From NCBI GenBank assembly GCA_000967895.1, contig FO203512.1, positions 537,582 through 569,581 of the forward strand: a stretch of 32,000 nt of DNA, given 5' to 3'. The DNA comes from Oleispira antarctica RB-8. Its GTDB lineage: Bacteria; Pseudomonadota; Gammaproteobacteria; Pseudomonadales; Oceanobacteraceae. The position numbers and the translations under genes were made by a program. Shown in pieces: positions 14,633 to 21,913 of the stretch. The stretch's first letter is position 1, and every line of letters starts with the position of its first letter. Under the pieces are notes generated by a model. The model did no database searches and was not told the origin of the DNA. It was given only the letters and a program-made list of their open reading frames with translations.

Positions 14633-15700
14633 ATGTTGATGGTCGTTAAAAATTTAAGAATATTATGCATCGGTTTATTAATGTCACTGAATTATGTTCA
14701 GGCGGCAGAACCTGATTTACCGCACATGGCTGAGCCAGCACCGACTCTCTATACAGGCTTTGGCCAATTATTAGATGACGATAAAACGCTGGTCTTAGAA
14801 GAATTAATGGACTTAGATCAAAATATTCAGCGTATCGCACTTTATCATAATGGCGATCGCTTGCACCGCTTAATCCCCAAGCAAGTGCACCAAATGATCG
14901 AGAATAAACTCATGCGTCGTTTAATTGCGAATGGCCGTTTTGATGTCATTCAGTGTCTCGAATGTCGAACGACTAAAGTAGTGATGGCTGTTGATGAGTT
15001 GAAAATATCACAAGCTGCTGAAAATAATCAGCAATTAAGAGCGCTATCAAAAAAAGTGCGTGCAGATGCCTTTATGTTCTGGAGTGCATCTGTACATGAA
15101 AATAAATTTACTATTAATTTGCGCTTAGTCGATGGTAAAAATAATGAGCTGCTATGGCTGAAAGAATATTCTAAAAAGACCACTCAAGAAGCGGAAGAAA
15201 ATGATTTTGATAGAGTTCAATATGAATTCATTGTCGGCGCTTGGGGGGTGAAAGGAAAACGTGAAAGTACCGTTGCCGCCGGGAGTACTGAACTAAAGGG
15301 AGCAACAGTTTTTGGTATACGTCGTAGAGAAAGCACAGAGTTAAATGAAGATATTGAATATACCTTAGGTTTTGAATACTTCACAAACTATTCGTCTGAA
15401 GAACTATTTGATCTCAGTGGTTATAATCTTGAAGGTCGAGTTATTGCAGATATTCCTGCCTTAGATGATGTGCTGGATACGAAAGTTTATCTTGGCATAG
15501 GGCAGTCATTTTTTAATGATGCAAACAGTCTGATCTTTCGTTTTGGCTTTGAATTTCCCTTCTTTAAAGACGGATTTATGGATTTTGGTGTGATGTATAT
15601 GCGAGAAGCCAATGTTAAGTGGAAGACCGATGCTGCGTTTGAAGAAATAGGCACTTTCGGTGGTGCAAGTTATGACTTAACACTCGGTGTGCGCTTCTAA
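14633..15700 (+). CDS. Putative outer-membrane protein: TolB-N/CsgG/FlgO-like N-domain plus C-terminal beta-barrel (operon gene 1)
   Basis: Signal peptide ...LLMSLNYVQA/AEP. The alternative start ATG 14639 sits 6 nt after AAGGA. The N-domain pattern LRALSKKVRADAFMFWSASVHENKFTINLRLVDGKNNELLWLKEY matches the ...A..lg..lgaD.vl.G.v......i..rLvd..tge.lW motif of TolB-N-like periplasmic domains. The C-terminal ~170 aa has alternating hydrophobic strands ending ...YDLTLGVRF (terminal Phe). Confidence 0.65.
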   Translation: MLMVVKNLRILCIGLLMSLNYVQAAEPDLPHMAEPAPTLYTGFGQLLDDDKTLVLEELMDLDQNIQRIALYHNGDRLHRLIPKQVHQMIENKLMRRLIANGRFDVIQCLECRTTKVVMAVDELKISQAAENNQQLRALSKKVRADAFMFWSASVHENKFTINLRLVDGKNNELLWLKEYSKKTTQEAEENDFDRVQYEFIVGAWGVKGKRESTVAAGSTELKGATVFGIRRRESTELNEDIEYTLGFEYFTNYSSEELFDLSGYNLEGRVIADIPALDDVLDTKVYLGIGQSFFNDANSLIFRFGFEFPFFKDGFMDFGVMYMREANVKWKTDAAFEEIGTFGGASYDLTLGVRF

Positions 15701-15709
15701 GGACGAATT

Positions 15710-16432
15710 ATGAAACAGTTAATAATTGCTTTATTGATAGTATTAATCAGTGCATGTACGCATGAAAGAACAAATAGAATGCTTACCCAGTATGGTGATA
15801 GTCAGCCTGATTTATTGGGAATTGGCGAACAGAGTACTGAAGCAACTGCTGAAATCTCGCTTGAGACCATAGAGAAGCGTAAGCAAGTTGCTGATTTAGC
15901 AAAAAAGAATCATGGTTTAATGCACATCCATCGCTACGGCCCTGGGTTTGATGTCTTAATGACATTAGATACGGGGGATAGCGATGTTAGTTTTAGTATG
16001 GCGCTGCCTTCAACACCGGGAAGTCTGCAAGACTCACTTCGAAGTGATTTACAAAAAAGTGCAGAAGAAATTGCTGAACAAAACAAACAAGTTCTTGAAA
16101 GCTTGGATGACGATAAAGCTGAACTTCATCATGAAGAATTAGATGAGCGCAGTGAATTAATTGAGCAAAAGAAAATTCAAGACTTTCAAGCTTCAACAAA
16201 ACACATCTTTAGTGCGCAGTCTTTATTTTATAAAAAGCAATATTGGCAATCATTGGATGAAACTAATAAAGCGCTAGAGCTAGTTCCAGACTCTGCTCAA
16301 GCGCATGCTTTGAAAGGCAGCATTTATTACAAAATGGGATTAAGTGCTGAAGCCAAAGCTAGTTGGCAGCAAGCGTTAGAAATAGATCCAACGATGGAAC
16401 AAGTCAAAACCAGTTTGACGCGCTTGAAGTAG
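15710..16432 (+). CDS. TPR-containing lipoprotein (operon gene 2)
   Basis: Lipobox LIVLISA-C-THE. An acidic, coiled middle region is followed by C-terminal TPR-like repeats (YWQSLDETNKALELVPDSAQAHALKGSIYYKMGLSAEAKASWQQALEIDP). It starts 9 nt after gene 1, with AAGGA overlapping the preceding stop. Confidence 0.7.
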   Translation: MKQLIIALLIVLISACTHERTNRMLTQYGDSQPDLLGIGEQSTEATAEISLETIEKRKQVADLAKKNHGLMHIHRYGPGFDVLMTLDTGDSDVSFSMALPSTPGSLQDSLRSDLQKSAEEIAEQNKQVLESLDDDKAELHHEELDERSELIEQKKIQDFQASTKHIFSAQSLFYKKQYWQSLDETNKALELVPDSAQAHALKGSIYYKMGLSAEAKASWQQALEIDPTMEQVKTSLTRLK

Positions 16433-16443
16433 GGGAACGGAAT

Positions 16444-18369
16444 ATGAAATTATTGATACAAGGTATCCTCAATCTGTGTCTGATCTGTGCAGTAGCTTAT
16501 CCTATTGTGAATGCTACGGCTGAGACTGGGAAAACCTTTGAAGTACCGGCTAAAAAAGATGAAATCGAAGAGGTGCGTTTTAAAGATGAAATGGAAGCGC
16601 GATTGAATCGAGACTTACAGGCATATCTTGGGAATAATCGCTTTATCATTCATGTTGAAGCCGAATTGAAAAAAACACGTACTGTTGTAAAAGAACGATC
16701 TAATACCGCGGCTAAGAATATTCCAGAACGCCCAGTATTTACTTCACAACCTTTGCCAGTATCAATCGATAATCGAACAAGAGAAATCGAAGAAACACTC
16801 CCTGGGCTTCCGACCAGTGATTTACCCATTTTCGAAGATAACAGTGTGGAAGTCGATGCGTTGAAAGGCCGTGTTCAGCAATTAGAGAATGAGCGGCAGC
16901 AAGCTCTGGGATATGCTGAAAAATTACGCCAAGAAGCTGAAAAGCAGATAGAAAAAATTAAAGAAAAAACGCTAGGTTATAGAAATTCTATTAATAAACT
17001 CACTATAACCGTGGTATTAGATAAAAGTTTAAAAGATGAGCAAATAGAATTCATTCGTAATTTGATTACTCGTAAAGCGCGCTTAGATGAATTACGAGGA
17101 GACTCTTTAAGCATTGTTCGTACAGAGTTTAAAGACGTTAAGCAAGATGTTGTACTGGATGGTTGGCAACAATACCAAGGCTGGATCATGTTAGCTTGTT
17201 TTGGCTTTATGATGTTGTTATTACTGCTGGTGCTCTATTTATTTAATAAGCGCTTGAGTGAGAGTCTAAAAGAGAATCAGCGAAGAAGTGATAACTTTGA
17301 TAGCCTGACTGTTCCGGCTGCCGTTGAAATGGCTCCTATTGATCATTCGGAAAATGAGGGTAATGATAAGCGTCGTCAGCTTAATGAAATGCGCCAAGAG
17401 CTCGTGACGATTGGCTTAGGCCAGCCACAGCTATTTCAACAGCGTATTAACGAACAGTTAAATAGCGGAAATAGTCAAAATGTAGCGGCCTTATATGAAG
17501 TATTAGGAAAGGGGTTGTTTCGCAGTCTTTGCCCAAAAATATTAAATTCTGATGCTGAAACTTTAGCAGACCAAGTCGCACAACAGCCTTTAGATAATGA
17601 ACAAAAACTTACTTATTTAAATAATCTGCGTCACGAGATGTTAAAAGCGTTAAGTGATGATGAAACGGGTAATGCTCCCTTTGCTTTTTTGGAAAAATTA
17701 AATGATTCACAAGTTTTATATTTAATAAAAGAAGAAGAAACGCGGATCAAAGCGTTGGTTTTATCGCAAGTTCCTGCAAAAAGAGCGGCCAGTTTAGTGC
17801 AGCGACTAGAGGGGCGTGAGCAATCTGCGGTAGCGTATGAATTGGGTGAGTTTGAAACCTTACCCGTATCAACCTTCAAAGACGTTGCGGATCGTTTAGC
17901 ACAAAAATCTTTGAATGTTCCAAGCTTTGAGAATGTATCTGCGAATGGTCTGTCAGTATTAATTAATATGCTAGACACCATGAGCAGTGGTGAAGAAACT
18001 CGTTTACTTAAAACATTAAAAGCGGATAAACCTGAAACCTATTATCGTTTGCGCCAAGTATATTATACCTATGCTGATTTGATGCGAACCCCTGAGCGAG
18101 TGATTGCGAATGAGCTTAGAGATGTTGATCGTACGGTGATGGCGTTATCGCTATGCCATACTACAACCGAATTCAAACGACATGTGTTAACGGGGTTGCC
18201 AGCCAAGCTACGATCTTCTGTCATTGCAGAATTGAAAATACAAGAAGGCCAAGCAGCACAAGAGCAAACTGAGCAGGCTAGAAATCAAGTTGTGGCTAAG
18301 ATGCGTGAAGTATTAAAAGCAGGCCGCTTTTCTATGGAAGAATTGATCGCTGTTGCGAATCCAAGTTAA
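16444..18369 (+). CDS. Bitopic FliF-like (periplasmic ring-building motifs) / FliG-like (cytoplasmic N-M-C domains) fusion protein (operon gene 3)
   Basis: I place the start at ATG 16444, with GGGGAACGG upstream and an N-terminal hydrophobic segment. The ORF-track start at 16363 would overlap gene 2. Periplasmic part: MEARLNRDLQAYLGNNRFIIHVEAEL and INKLTITVVLDKSL..EQIEFIRNLITRKARLDELRGDSLSIVRTEF, with the RGD-x-v-x-V...F motif placed before the TM as in FliF. TM about aa 247-267 (nt 17182-17244). Cytoplasmic part: AALYEVLGKGLFRSLCPKILNSDAETLADQVAQ (FliG-N like), EEETRIKALVLSQVPAKRAASLVQRLEGREQSAVAYELGEFETLP (FliG-M like, at the EHPQ position), and VYYTYADL...VIANELRDVD..VMALSL...LPAKLRSSVIAEL....ARNQVVAKMREVLKAGRF (FliG-C like). 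Confidence 0.7.
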   Translation: MKLLIQGILNLCLICAVAYPIVNATAETGKTFEVPAKKDEIEEVRFKDEMEARLNRDLQAYLGNNRFIIHVEAELKKTRTVVKERSNTAAKNIPERPVFTSQPLPVSIDNRTREIEETLPGLPTSDLPIFEDNSVEVDALKGRVQQLENERQQALGYAEKLRQEAEKQIEKIKEKTLGYRNSINKLTITVVLDKSLKDEQIEFIRNLITRKARLDELRGDSLSIVRTEFKDVKQDVVLDGWQQYQGWIMLACFGFMMLLLLLVLYLFNKRLSESLKENQRRSDNFDSLTVPAAVEMAPIDHSENEGNDKRRQLNEMRQELVTIGLGQPQLFQQRINEQLNSGNSQNVAALYEVLGKGLFRSLCPKILNSDAETLADQVAQQPLDNEQKLTYLNNLRHEMLKALSDDETGNAPFAFLEKLNDSQVLYLIKEEETRIKALVLSQVPAKRAASLVQRLEGREQSAVAYELGEFETLPVSTFKDVADRLAQKSLNVPSFENVSANGLSVLINMLDTMSSGEETRLLKTLKADKPETYYRLRQVYYTYADLMRTPERVIANELRDVDRTVMALSLCHTTTEFKRHVLTGLPAKLRSSVIAELKIQEGQAAQEQTEQARNQVVAKMREVLKAGRFSMEELIAVANPS

Positions 18370-18378
18370 GGATCAAGT

Positions 18379-19182
18379 ATGAATCGATTTTCGTTTAGTA
18401 CACTGGTTGGGATAACGGTCGCTATTAGCCTTTTCATGTACGCCATTGTTTCGAGCACCAATAACTATTTAATGTTTATTAGTGTCTCAAGCTTTGCTTT
18501 GGTGGCGGGAAGCACGTTTGCAGCCTCTTTGATTAGCTATACCACAGCAGACGTCCTTACCGCGATTAAAGCATTATTTGAGACCTTGTTTCATGCGCCG
18601 ACCAGTTCGAAACATTTACGCGGCCATGTAGAGCGCTTTATTGAATGGGGAAGTATTTATCGTCAACAAGGTATTGCGGGATTAGAGTCTTCGCTAACGG
18701 ACAAAGAGCGCAGAGATCCATTTTTAGCACACGGTATGGAGCTATTAAGCAGTGGTTATAAAAACCATGACATTCGTACTATTTTAACCGATGACATGGA
18801 CGCTTTCTGGCAACGAATGACTGTCGAGTCAAAAGTATTAAATACGATGGCTGTTTATGCTCCCGGCTTTGGTATGGTTGGTACCATCATCGGTTTGATT
18901 ATTATGCTCGATAATATGAATGGCGATATGGCCGCCTTAGGTAAAGGTTTGGCATTGGCATTAATTACAACGCTATATGGCGTTGTATTGGCCAACATTT
19001 TCTTTAGACCTGCTGCCAACCAAGTGACCGAAAAACAAGAATCATTATACTTTCGTGATCAAATGATTGTTGAAGGGTTTGTATTGTTAGCCGAGAAGCG
19101 TGACGCATTATTTATGCAAGATCGGTTGAATGCTTACCTCAAACCAAGTGCACGTTATCAGCCAATAGAAGAAGAGCTGTAA
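18379..19182 (+). CDS. MotA/PomA-family stator A subunit (operon gene 4)
   Basis: The 267-aa, 4-TM layout aligns by eye with V. alginolyticus PomA: APGFGMVGTIIGLIIMLDNM...LALALITTLYGVVLANIFFRPAANQV versus APAMGMIGTLVGLVAMLSNM...MAVALLTTLYGAILSNMVFFPIADKL. The cytoplasmic loop YRQQGIAGLE aligns with PomA ARKGGFLALE. Confidence 0.9.
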   Translation: MNRFSFSTLVGITVAISLFMYAIVSSTNNYLMFISVSSFALVAGSTFAASLISYTTADVLTAIKALFETLFHAPTSSKHLRGHVERFIEWGSIYRQQGIAGLESSLTDKERRDPFLAHGMELLSSGYKNHDIRTILTDDMDAFWQRMTVESKVLNTMAVYAPGFGMVGTIIGLIIMLDNMNGDMAALGKGLALALITTLYGVVLANIFFRPAANQVTEKQESLYFRDQMIVEGFVLLAEKRDALFMQDRLNAYLKPSARYQPIEEEL

Positions 19183-19862
19183 TGACAGAGTCGGTTTCTA
19201 ATAAACACAGGGGGCTAAGACGTCGTCGCCCCAATTTTGAGGATTCATCCAGCTCTTGGTTAATTACCTACTCTGATGCAGTTACTTTGCTGCTCGCTTT
19301 TTTTGTAATGATATTATCTGTCTCAGATTTGAATCAGGGAAAAGTGGAAGCGCTAAAAGAAGGTCTAACAGAAGCGATGACAGGAGAGGCGCCTCCTACA
19401 CCATTTACCGATATTAAAAATGGCTTAGAGCAATTAATTGAGCAGGATGGCTTGCAAGATCAAGTCTCTGTTACTCTAGATAAAGAAGGTGTGAAAATAG
19501 AGTTTTCAAATGTTTCATTATATCAATCAGGTTCGGCCGATATTAAAATTGATGCGATTAAAACACTGAATAAAGTAACTCAAGTTATACTAAAAACCAG
19601 CCATAAGACTCACATGGTCGAAGTGGGTGGGCATACTGATAATGTTCCAATTCATACCGAAAAATTCCCATCAAATTGGGAGTTGTCGTCTGCGCGAGCA
19701 ACCAATGTTGTTAAGTACTTATTAGCAGAAGGAATCGAAAAAGAACGACTAAAAGCGGCAGGTTACGCCGATAGCCGACCTAAAGAAAACAGCCTTAATT
19801 TACCCCTCAATCAGCAGCGTGAAGATAATCGACGCGTGGTTATTTTTGTAAAGCGTTACTAG
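19182..19862 (+). CDS. MotB/PomB-family stator B subunit with OmpA-like peptidoglycan-binding domain (operon gene 5)
   Basis: TAATG overlap with gene 4. The TM segment WLITYSDAVTLLLAFFVMIL carries the invariant Asp. The C-terminus GGHTDNVP...SNWELSSARATNVVKYL...NRRVVIFV is an OmpA/MotB PG-binding motif. Confidence 0.9.
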   Translation: MTESVSNKHRGLRRRRPNFEDSSSSWLITYSDAVTLLLAFFVMILSVSDLNQGKVEALKEGLTEAMTGEAPPTPFTDIKNGLEQLIEQDGLQDQVSVTLDKEGVKIEFSNVSLYQSGSADIKIDAIKTLNKVTQVILKTSHKTHMVEVGGHTDNVPIHTEKFPSNWELSSARATNVVKYLLAEGIEKERLKAAGYADSRPKENSLNLPLNQQREDNRRVVIFVKRY

Positions 19863-19903
19863 CGTTACATCATCAAACCCATCACTCAAGATCTTAATTC
19901 ATA

Positions 19904-19923
19904 GATGACATGAAAGTGTCATC
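19904..19923 (+). terminator. Hairpin downstream of the motB-like gene (possible weak terminator)
   Basis: Stem GATGACA (19904-10), loop TGAAAG, stem TGTCATC (19917-23). It is followed by an AT-rich stretch but not a clean T-run, and it overlaps the Pho-box-like element. Confidence 0.35.
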
Positions 19924-19948
19924 TAATGTTATTAAATCTGTCACTTTC
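19916..19948 (+). promoter_or_regulatory. Pho-box-like element (three 11-bp phased units) upstream of the phoX-like gene
   Basis: GTGTCAT-CTAA | TGTTATT-AAAT | CTGTCAC-TTTC, compared with the E. coli PhoB consensus CTGTCAT-AAAA-CTGTCAT. A perfect TATAAT lies at 19981-19986, 20 nt before the ATG. Confidence 0.35.
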
Positions 19949-20005: not shown

Positions 20006-21913
20006 ATGGAACTCCTTCAGAAAAACGCTTTATACAAGGCGGTATTACTCGCGATGACAACGAGTATGTTAGTTGCTTGCGGCGGAGATTCGGATGGCGA
20101 CGATGGTATAAATGGTGCTAGCGGTGCTAACGGTACTAATGGTGCTAACGGTACTAATGGTGCAGACGGTCAAAATGCGGGAGGACCTGTTTCAGTAATT
20201 GACCCAACAAGCCTTGTTTTTACCGGTGTAAAAGCCCCAATGACTGATGCTGAAAAACGTACGGTTTTAGCCTCTGATGCCATGATTGACGGTAAGGTTT
20301 ATGGCGGTGCTTATAAAACATTAGTACGTTCTGGTGAGGATGTTAATGGTATCTACTTTGGTCAATTAGTTGATGAGTCGGGTAGCGTATTAAAAGCGGG
20401 TGATGGATCTATTAAAATCTCTGATTCAAATGAATTTACCTCATTATTACCGATCGGCAATAAATTATTCTCAGTTTCTCAGTTTGAAAGTAAGCCAGGT
20501 GCAATGTTCTTGATGGAATTAAATCAAGATGCTGTCGATGGTGAATTAACTGTAAAAAACATGAGCCAAATAGACCAGTCTGGCATTGATGGAGGCTGGG
20601 TTCATTGCGCGGCATCCGTAACCCCTTGGACAACGCATTTAGCGTCAGAAGAATATGAGCCGAATGCTCGTTCTCTGGTTACAGGGTCTGATGCTCAATC
20701 CGATGGCTATACAAGTGGCATGTTGGATTATTACGCCGATATTAACCAATGGAATCCGTATTTCTATGGTTGGAATATTGAAGTTGTTGTCTCAGAAGAT
20801 GCTCAAGTAACAAGTACAAAGCATTATGCAATGGGGCGTTTAGCATTTGAACTTTCTTATGTGATGCCTGATAAAAAAACAACCTATATGACGGATGATG
20901 GAACGAACGTTGGCTTATATATGTTCGTTGCTGATACAGCTGAAGATCTGAGCGCAGGCACGGCTTATGCCGCTAAATGGAATCAAACGTCTGCCGATGG
21001 CATGGGCGCGGCTGACTTAGAATGGATTTCTTTAGGTCATGCGACAGATGCTGAGATTAAAGATTATGTGAAAGGCACCAACGGTAAAACTGTTGCAACT
21101 TTCGCAGATATCTTCACGACGGCAGATGCGACAGGATCGACATGTCCTGATACTTTTACTGCGGTTAATGCCGGTGGTAAAGGACTTGAGTGTTTGAAAG
21201 TGAATGCAGGTATGGAAAAAGCGGCTTCTCGTTTAGAGACACGTCGTTATGCTGCATTAATGGGTGCAACGACAGAATTCAGAAAAGAAGAAGGCGTTAC
21301 TTTCGATAGTAAGCGTAACAAGCTGTATGTTGCTATGTCATCTATTGAAAAAGGCATGATGGATAATGACTCAAATGATTTTGGTGGGCCAAATCACATT
21401 GCACTTAATACCTTAAACAAATGCGGTGGCGTATACGAATTAGACCTTGGAGCAAATGCTGGAATGGGGTCCGACTTTGTTGCACAAAACATGAAGGGCC
21501 TGATTGCTGGTCGCCCAGTCGATGGCAGTGGTTATGGTACAACAACCGAGCCACAAGCTGTTGGTTATGAGAATGGTAATAAGTGTCACATTGATGGAAT
21601 ATCAAACCCAGATAACGTTACGTATATGACGGGCTACGATAAGTTAATTGTCGGTGAAGATACGGGTTCTGGTCACCAGAATGATGTTATTTGGGCTTAT
21701 GACTTTACCTCAGAAGATCTTGTTCGAATTCAAACCACACCTTATGGTTCTGAAACAACGTCTCCTTACTGGTATCCAAATATCAATGGCTGGGCGTACA
21801 TGACTTCCGTTATTCAGCATCCTTATGGTGAGTCTGATGGTGGTGAGAATACTGGGGCAGGAGAAGCGCGTGCTTACACGGGTTATGTCGGTCCTTTCCC
21901 CGCTGTAAACTAA
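20006..21913 (+). CDS. PhoX/DUF839-family phosphatase-like lipoprotein with collagen-like Gly-X-Y linker
   Basis: Lipobox TSMLVA-C-GGD, then 8 GXY triplets. The core ...GGWVHCAASVTPWTTHLASEEYEPNA resembles the PhoX ...NCAGG.TPWGT.LTcEEN motif. The C-terminus ...GEDTGSGHQNDVIWAYD...GSETTSPYWYPNINGWAYMTSVIQHP resembles the PhoX end (E.tG..fsPdg.tlFvniQHP). Confidence 0.65.
   Translation: MELLQKNALYKAVLLAMTTSMLVACGGDSDGDDGINGASGANGTNGANGTNGADGQNAGGPVSVIDPTSLVFTGVKAPMTDAEKRTVLASDAMIDGKVYGGAYKTLVRSGEDVNGIYFGQLVDESGSVLKAGDGSIKISDSNEFTSLLPIGNKLFSVSQFESKPGAMFLMELNQDAVDGELTVKNMSQIDQSGIDGGWVHCAASVTPWTTHLASEEYEPNARSLVTGSDAQSDGYTSGMLDYYADINQWNPYFYGWNIEVVVSEDAQVTSTKHYAMGRLAFELSYVMPDKKTTYMTDDGTNVGLYMFVADTAEDLSAGTAYAAKWNQTSADGMGAADLEWISLGHATDAEIKDYVKGTNGKTVATFADIFTTADATGSTCPDTFTAVNAGGKGLECLKVNAGMEKAASRLETRRYAALMGATTEFRKEEGVTFDSKRNKLYVAMSSIEKGMMDNDSNDFGGPNHIALNTLNKCGGVYELDLGANAGMGSDFVAQNMKGLIAGRPVDGSGYGTTTEPQAVGYENGNKCHIDGISNPDNVTYMTGYDKLIVGEDTGSGHQNDVIWAYDFTSEDLVRIQTTPYGSETTSPYWYPNINGWAYMTSVIQHPYGESDGGENTGAGEARAYTGYVGPFPAVN
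20105..20176 (+). repeat. In-frame GGT-NNN-NNN triplet repeat with a perfect 18-bp tandem duplication
   Basis: ggtgctaacggtactaat occurs at 20123-20140 and again at 20141-20158, flanked by degenerate units. The region encodes GINGASGANGTNGANGTNGADGQN. Confidence 0.85.

Follow-up and report, generated by a model that had tools for sequence, protein, structure and literature searches.

Which rotor does a flagellar-type stator serve when the gene just upstream of it encodes a FliG-like protein of its own? The question is raised by a 32,000-nucleotide stretch of the Oleispira antarctica RB-8 chromosome (G000:C1:537582-569581, within a single-contig genome of 4,406,383 bp), hereafter the window, in which genes for a MotA-type and a MotB-type protein, both with intact open reading frames, are the final two of a tight five-gene operon at 14633-19862 on the forward strand. 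On balance, we favor the reading that they encode an intact MotA/MotB-type stator of the PomA-like (TGI4) class, and that it is most likely dedicated to the FliF-FliG fusion protein encoded upstream rather than to the C-ring of the flagellum. The stator appears to serve the fusion instead of a flagellum because relatives without flagellar marker genes keep the same pair. Judging by the arrangement of the genes, the pair is co-transcribed with those for the fusion, a tetratricopeptide repeat (TPR) lipoprotein and a barrel protein. The motA start lies 9 nucleotides past the stop codon of the fusion gene, in agreement with the original prediction, made from the sequence of this DNA, that a FliG-like domain is encoded at that distance, and is preceded by AAGGA. 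The genes of the operon, in window coordinates, are the following.

14633..15700, + strand: gene 1, secreted protein of 355 amino acids, LpoB-C/TolB-N-like domain at the N terminus, small outer-membrane beta-barrel at the C terminus (AlphaFold2 (AF2) model, Foldseek)
15710..16432, + strand: gene 2, TPR lipoprotein of 240 amino acids (Pfam TPR_1/TPR_2/TPR_11)
16444..18369, + strand: gene 3, fusion of FliF_C, a transmembrane (TM) segment, FliG_M and FliG_C, 641 amino acids from the ATG at 16444 (Pfam YscJ_FliF_C, FliG_M, FliG_C)
16363, + strand: TTG at which the open frame of the fusion begins, upstream of ATG 16444
18379..19182, + strand: motA-type A subunit, 267 amino acids, PomA-like (TGI4) flagellar-type fold (Pfam, AF2 model, Foldseek)
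19182..19862, + strand: motB-type B subunit, 226 amino acids, translationally coupled to motA, whose stop codon overlaps the motB start as TAATG

Across 301 genomes drawn evenly from the order, seven carry the fusion, and the identical seven carry a close MotA orthologue (at least 285 bits); none of the other 294 has one alone. Two genomes of the same family lack both the fusion and the close MotA orthologue. A class sample of 401 genomes contained six further carriers of a fusion-type protein, five of which were examined (completeness 93-99%, three of them single-contig). In these five gammaproteobacterial genomes there was no FHIPEP/FlhA match and no flagellin match, and the sole FliG_C match was the fusion itself. 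The operon-type MotA was the sole MotA-type gene in four of the five, adjoining the fusion operon in three and lying 657 kb away from it in the other (G426), where its MotB is still beside it. The fifth carrier (G671) has no MotA-type gene anywhere in its genome. The pair is therefore retained in genomes that encode no flagellum, lacking FlhA, flagellin and any ordinary FliG, and in these the fusion is its sole FliG-like partner. The G671 locus (L115, G671:C3:1-15000) encodes a fusion-type protein of 789 amino acids and a TPR protein, with a Sel1-repeat protein of 498 amino acids encoded after the fusion.

The five-gene operon recurs in Thalassolituus (in the same chromosomal neighborhood), Bermanella, Moritella (in a different neighborhood), an Aliivibrio-like contig and several other gammaproteobacterial genomes. 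Its gene set and order are preserved from 94% down to about 33% MotA identity, genes 1 and 2 being co-conserved with the stator in the operon loci, and the order differs only in L113. In this rearranged set (G367:C79, a gammaproteobacterium), MotA and MotB precede gene 1, the TPR gene and the fusion. When compared with a syntenic Oleispira relative, nonsynonymous divergence (dN) was 0.062 for motA and 0.131 for motB; synonymous divergence (dS) was saturated, so no dN/dS ratio is given. The window pair is under strong purifying selection.

The MotA subunit retains residues associated with a rotor interface. In MAFFT alignments with E. coli MotA (MG1655) and the genome's three other A subunits, R95 fell on R90 and E103 on E98, exactly where the original prediction had placed them by eye, and the two conserved prolines that it named were recovered as P162 and P211. 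Because the genome's own PomA orthologue aligns with Vibrio alginolyticus PomA (PDB 8brd) without a gap (residues 1-249 on 1-249, E 1e-95), PomA numbering transfers to the window MotA columns, and the aligned positions correspond as listed here.

18661..18687, + strand: rotor-interface motif RQQGIAGLE, MotA residues 95-103; R95 and E103 equivalent to PomA R88 and E96 and to E. coli MotA R90 and E98
18862..18864, + strand: MotA P162, equivalent to E. coli MotA P173 and PomA P151
18883-18885, + strand: MotA T169, equivalent to E. coli MotA A180 and PomA T158
18967..18972, + strand: MotA T197-T198, equivalent to E. coli MotA G208/T209 and PomA T185/T186
19009..19011, + strand: MotA P211, equivalent to E. 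coli MotA P222 and PomA P199

RQQGIAGLE matches RxxG-phi-phi-xLE, a PomA motif that crosslinking has placed on the FliG-facing surface of PomA (bioRxiv 10.1101/2021.01.07.425829). Among homologues at least 47% identical, R95 was retained in 37 of 38 and E103 in 34 of 38, a degree of retention that, judged on the alignment, exceeds chance. The operon-linked A subunits keep R95 in 12 of 14 cases and E103 in 11 of 14, and P162 and P211 are invariant across all 99 aligned A subunits.

The best phmmer matches of the fusion in the PDB are the FliG structures 3hjl and 1lkv. Of FliF it holds only the C-terminal part (Pfam YscJ_FliF_C, residues 85-256), it has no FliG_N domain, and it has no FliM or FliN partners. 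In a MAFFT alignment with two FliG proteins, that of E. coli and the one native to this genome, the fusion places K615 on E. coli R281 and E623 on D289 (residue numbers follow the 668-amino-acid form), in the following element.

18196..18249, + strand: torque-helix equivalent in the FliG_C domain of the fusion, LPAKLRSSVIAELKIQEG (MAFFT against both FliG proteins)

A basic residue (K/R) stands at R281 in 14 of 16 fusions and an acidic one (E/D) at D289 in 11 of 16. Charge-reversal genetics in E. coli pairs FliG R281 with MotA E98, and FliG D288/D289 with MotA R90 (summarised in bioRxiv 10.1101/2021.01.07.425829). Three cases of co-variation between the protein sequences would fit such charge pairing between MotA and the fusion, in numbers too small for statistics. 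The fusion of G671, the genome with no MotA-type gene, reads T/Y/T at the torque-helix charge positions; in the most divergent MotA (L116), E replaces R95 and the acidic residue is lost from its fusion; and in G426, with its unlinked MotAB, R/E is kept in MotA and R/E/E in the fusion. The original prediction described a FliG-engaging stator. The charges on the fusion and the genomes in which it is the sole FliG support this, and we infer from sequence that MotA would engage the FliG domain of the fusion, with the qualification that the pair is probably a flagellar-type stator dedicated to the fusion rather than a flagellar stator by function.

Window MotA scores 90.8 bits against Pfam MotA_ExbB. 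Its AF2 model (predicted local distance difference test score, pLDDT, 87.8) has helices at residues 6-26, 36-53, 56-68, 77-104, 108-124, 129-179 and 185-238, and four TM helices, a four-helix cytoplasmic domain and a continuous TM3 helix are predicted, as in flagellar A subunits. The first 23 Foldseek matches of this model were all PomA or MotA (TM-score 0.78-0.85), with ExbB and TolQ reaching at most 0.50. In the alignment, the 15-residue E. coli-type (TGI5) insertion is missing, which therefore assigns the protein to the PomA-like TGI4 class as defined in PMC12505986. By its profile scores, the pair is the equivalog of no named stator: MotA fell below the NCBIfam equivalog cut-offs, with MotP as the best (NF005383, 164.6 bits, cut-off 394) and PomA at 127 bits (NF006527, cut-off 341). 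Counterparts of the PomAB Na+ site are present, namely MotA T169 and T198 and MotB D32. Of 66 other TGI4 A subunits, 63-65 have the same threonines, which also appear in a C. sporogenes MotA alignment. Some TGI4 stators, such as Bacillus subtilis MotAB, are H+-driven, and T169, T197 and T198 are therefore not diagnostic for the ion.

Two other assignments were considered and rejected. One is a generic ExbB/TolQ transporter, for which NCBIfam TolQ/ExbB models gave 17 bits against cut-offs of 135-221 and the Foldseek TM-score was no higher than stated above. The other is the anti-phage system Zorya, in which a long-tailed ZorA comes with ZorB and either ZorC/D or ZorE, and for which ZorA models gave at most 15.4 bits; the A subunit has 267 amino acids compared with more than 500 for long-tailed ZorA, and there was no other significant PADLOC match in the operon.

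The MotB subunit has three elements that had been called from its sequence, a channel aspartate, a plug and a peptidoglycan-binding domain.

19275..19277, + strand: MotB D32, channel aspartate in TM segment 27-45 (alignment)
19317..19379, + strand: MotB plug segment after the TM helix, residues ~46-66 (Pfam MotB_plug)
19521..19790, + strand: MotB OmpA-type peptidoglycan-binding domain, residues 114-203 (Pfam span)

D32, the counterpart of PomB D24, aligns with E. coli MotB D32 (MAFFT) and does not vary among the 14 operon-linked B subunits, as expected of the invariant TM aspartate first proposed. The plug is supported by Pfam MotB_plug over residues 20-66 (53.9 bits, cut-off 24) and by a block, SDLNQGKxExLKEGL, conserved among the operon-linked B subunits; the short amphipathic character that had been ascribed to it proved moderate, with a maximum hydrophobic moment of 0.47 at residues 55-65. 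The peptidoglycan-binding motif is complete, as the original prediction had it: the Pfam OmpA domain scores 57.9 bits (cut-off 27.2), GHTD...SNWELSxARA...NRRV is intact and conserved in operon-linked B subunits, and the PDB matches of the periplasmic domain are the C-terminal domains of MotB, MotS and PomB. Operon-linked B subunits are short, 221-241 amino acids as called (252 in the open reading frame call for L119), with a minimal linker.

O. antarctica encodes four MotA/MotB pairs, a number that is unusually rich for a bacterium with a single polar flagellum. Besides the window pair they are, in coordinates of G000:C1, as follows.

4060304-4062046: true PomAB orthologue
1343733-1345174: pair beside the flagellar cluster
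3948384-3950282: E. coli-type (TGI5) pair

Window MotA is 17-27% identical to these other A subunits (27% to the genome's own PomA) and 17% identical to E. coli MotA. Trees of 99 MotA rows and of 69 concatenated MotA and MotB rows (careful search) agreed. All 14 operon-linked stators fell in one 17-row clade (support 99/98). Outward from this clade and its sister group came Pseudomonas, Halomonas and Guyparkeria pairs, which by our reading are MotCD-like. PomA grouped with other TGI4 stators, and E. coli-type MotA was distant. Strict monophyly of the 14 operon-linked stators was not found in the best tree, and forcing it costs 1.34 log-likelihood units and is not rejected (approximately unbiased test, p-AU 0.465). 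As read from these trees, the window pair is a distinct branch within the flagellar stator (TGI4) radiation, neither an Exb/Tol-like outlier nor the orthologue of a relative's ordinary stator. Nesting among ordinary stators of close relatives without genes 1-3, the outcome that would have told against a separate pair, was not what the trees gave, and all seven genomes with an orthologue have the fusion.

Mutants of a pair that is probably orthologous have been published. In Vibrio fischeri, motility is lost in motA1 and motB1 mutants, soft-agar swimming is normal in those of motA2 and motB2, and motA2B2 lies outside the FlrA regulon (Brennan et al. 2013, PMC3948606). That study treats motA2B2 as paralogues of unknown role and does not mention the adjacent FliG-like gene. 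Peptides derived from its primers (GLLMAFG, LDETNVT, KVVDTSAH and SEAMKEV) match P0081, the MotA encoded on L137, and the neighboring MotB with one or two changes and the right spacing, and two of the four primers match L137 within motA and motB (4/24 and 2/23 mismatches). L137 bears the complete five-gene operon, and P0081 is 44% identical to window MotA. These matches make it likely that V. fischeri motA2B2 is orthologous to the window pair.

Four new points speak most strongly for a stator dedicated to the fusion: the perfect co-occurrence, the retention of a sole MotA with a sole FliG in genomes without flagellar genes, the match between the charged pairs, and a published mutant without a swimming defect to which the pair is likely related. 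Several observations weigh against it. Of the five classical charged positions of FliG, the fusions retain just two; K264, D288 and R297 are not kept. The MotA of L113 has R and D, yet its fusion has S/T, and in the MotA of L122, E103 is changed to S. O. antarctica has a flagellum, a canonical FliG and three stator pairs besides this one, and a flagellar role is possible there. MotA and MotB (OLEAN_C05070/C05080) are missing from the list of detected O. antarctica proteins (PMC7318663 supplementary file 4). The link to V. fischeri, likely as it is, rests on primer and peptide matches to L137 and not on the ES114 genome sequence. Finally, three unlinked pairs (Melioribacteraceae, Margulisiibacteriota and UBP8) nest in the 17-row clade, and its sister group (100/100) consists of stand-alone pairs of flagellated Alphaproteobacteria, so the stator lineage has moved between contexts. 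The host genomes of the unlinked relatives checked have FlhA and ordinary FliG, and these relatives are presumably flagellar stators. In the stand-alone set (the sister group and the three nested pairs), position 95 is Q or K in 18 of 19.

A second type of module was observed in L128 (G699:C10:12420-15734, Margulisiibacteriota) and L129 (G700:C41, UBP8). Both encode a protein of 476 amino acids, with a TM region and FliG_M/FliG_C, whose gene is followed directly by those of a different MotA/MotB pair (scores against window MotA about 91-94 bits). The same genomes additionally hold a stand-alone pair of the window MotA clade.

If the stator does serve the fusion, ion flow (H+ or Na+) via MotB D32 would turn the MotA ring around the MotB dimer, itself presumably held on the peptidoglycan by the OmpA-type domain. 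R95 and E103 of MotA would push against K615 and E623 in the torque helix of the fusion. This would move the fusion, whether it forms a ring or some smaller assembly, and its FliF-like periplasmic part would transmit the force to the outer-membrane protein and the TPR lipoprotein. In its fullest form this would be a self-contained, envelope-spanning rotary machine of flagellar parts (stator, FliF-FliG ring, barrel and TPR lipoprotein), turning or pulling something at the outer membrane, perhaps without a flagellum, a proposal that we hold tentatively, as plausible and somewhat short of probable.

Known systems share some of these features. PomAB, MotPS and MotCD flagellar stators (FIT clade, TGI4; Puente-Lelievre et al. 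2025, PMC12505986) resemble the window pair in fold, continuous TM3, channel aspartate, plug and OmpA-type domain; unlike them, the window pair has its genetic ties with two outer-membrane proteins and a FliF-FliG fusion rather than with flagellar genes. ExbBD-TonB, TolQR-TolA, AglRQS, GldLM and ZorAB are A5B2-type motors that use ions for envelope work other than swimming, usually with a partner that reaches the outer membrane; the window pair may be like them in this respect, but their A subunits have a condensed cytoplasmic domain, no FliG-contact motif and no FliG-like partner. Single polypeptides that combine parts of FliF and FliG, without a working flagellum, exist as the natural fusion of Chlamydiaceae (Bergeron 2016, PMC4768692) and as engineered fusions (PDB 8z4d). 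The chlamydial fusion as described has only a FliG_M-like region and no stator reported beside it, whereas the window fusion includes FliG_C, in which the torque helix is charged, and is followed by a MotAB pair that is probably dedicated to it. A published survey also notes rotor proteins without filaments. Our literature search found no description of the five-gene operon, only the engineered FliF-FliG fusions, the chlamydial fusion and the survey of filament-less rotors.

The fusion may instead be a force transducer present in one or a few copies and not a rotating ring, as in ExbBD-TonB, TolQR-TolA or AglRQS-Glt, with its FliG domain as a handle gripped by the MotA ring. We judge this rather unlikely. 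It has the precedent that the known non-flagellar MotAB relatives all act via a periplasm-spanning adaptor on an outer-membrane partner (established knowledge; overview in PMC12505986), and the operon provides an LpoB/TolB-N-like outer-membrane barrel protein and a TPR lipoprotein, while in the fusion FliF is represented by its C-terminal part alone, FliG_N is missing, and there are no FliM or FliN partners. However, both the ring-building C-terminal region of FliF and FliG_M, which chains FliG subunits in the C-ring, are retained, and engineered FliF-FliG fusions form rings.

The models and matches of the accessory proteins are relevant here. The AF2 model of gene 1 (pLDDT 78.8) combines an LpoB-C/TolB-N-like periplasmic domain with a small OmpX/NspA/OmpA-like barrel; Foldseek matched the barrel to NspA, OmpX, OmpA and OmpW and the N-terminal domain to LpoB, TolB and GNA1162, and Pfam gave a weak FlgT_M match. 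In the Vibrio polar motor, PomAB is held via FlgT and MotX; the middle domain of FlgT is TolB-N-like, and MotX is of the Sel1/TPR type. By this analogy, the proteins of genes 1 and 2 could be a scaffold for the stator as well as its output, which we offer as a lead only.

It is quite improbable that the pair is an auxiliary flagellar stator acting on the FliG of the polar flagellum, like Pseudomonas MotCD or Shewanella MotAB beside PomAB, with the fusion as a regulator, a reservoir or an unrelated protein. Such a role would suit a pair that lies inside the flagellar TGI4 radiation, keeps the FliG-contacting R/E residues, has its nearest stand-alone relatives in flagellated bacteria with FlhA and ordinary FliG, and belongs to a flagellated organism that already runs several stator sets. 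It does not account for the co-occurrence with the fusion, which is perfect among 301 genomes, or for genomes in which this is the sole MotA and FlhA, flagellin and ordinary FliG are missing. The V. fischeri motA2B2 mutants swim whereas motA1B1 mutants are non-motile, and motA2B2 is outside the FlrA regulon (PMC3948606), which also argues against it, as does the location of the operon, 0.75 Mb from the flagellar cluster of the genome and amid housekeeping genes (fumarase, pterin dehydratase and PhoX).

A paralogue that is decaying or non-functional and stays beside a FliG-like gene by chance might go undetected in the proteome and score far under every NCBIfam equivalog cut-off, as this pair does, but the idea is effectively refuted by conservation, with intact open reading frames, all functional residues present, dN far under a saturated dS, and an operon conserved to about 33% identity in several gammaproteobacterial families and holding the sole MotA in some genomes, so that the original view of the pair as no decayed paralogue holds.

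Two proteins of the operon are among the detected O. antarctica proteins (PMC7318663 supplementary file 4), gene 1 as OLEAN_C05040 and the fusion as OLEAN_C05060, a 'FliG-like protein' of 641 amino acids. The rows for OLEAN_C05010 (fumarate hydratase), C05040, C05060 and C05090 (alkaline phosphatase, 635 amino acids) match the order and lengths found in the window. In this file the columns for accession and length are out of register with those for locus tag and description (R4YK22, 641 amino acids, stands on the C05010 row), and presence was used, not abundance.

Downstream of the operon, a perfect 10-bp inverted repeat (TAGATGACAT, loop GAAA) lies at 19902-19925, 40 nucleotides 3' of the motB stop codon, and is not followed by a T run; it could mark the operon end or be part of the phoX control region. 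The PhoX-family gene that follows (20006-21913) is only 33% identical in codon alignment to that of the syntenic Oleispira relative (L132:7584-9440), compared with 82-96% for its neighbors, which reflects either fast divergence, gene replacement or an alignment problem.

Flagellar-class stators are currently held to be one group devoted to flagella, apart from the Exb, Tol, Agl, Gld and Zor motors (PMC12505986). The window pair has every hallmark of a flagellar stator, is linked to a FliG-bearing membrane protein of its own, and is still found in genomes that encode no flagellum. The charge pairs R95/E103 and K615/E623 provide a direct and cheap genetic handle on this relationship, and both V. 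fischeri and O. antarctica are culturable. If our interpretation is correct, the pair would be the first stator of the flagellar (FIT) class to work outside the flagellum, and it may shed light on roles of the rotor-stator core apart from swimming.

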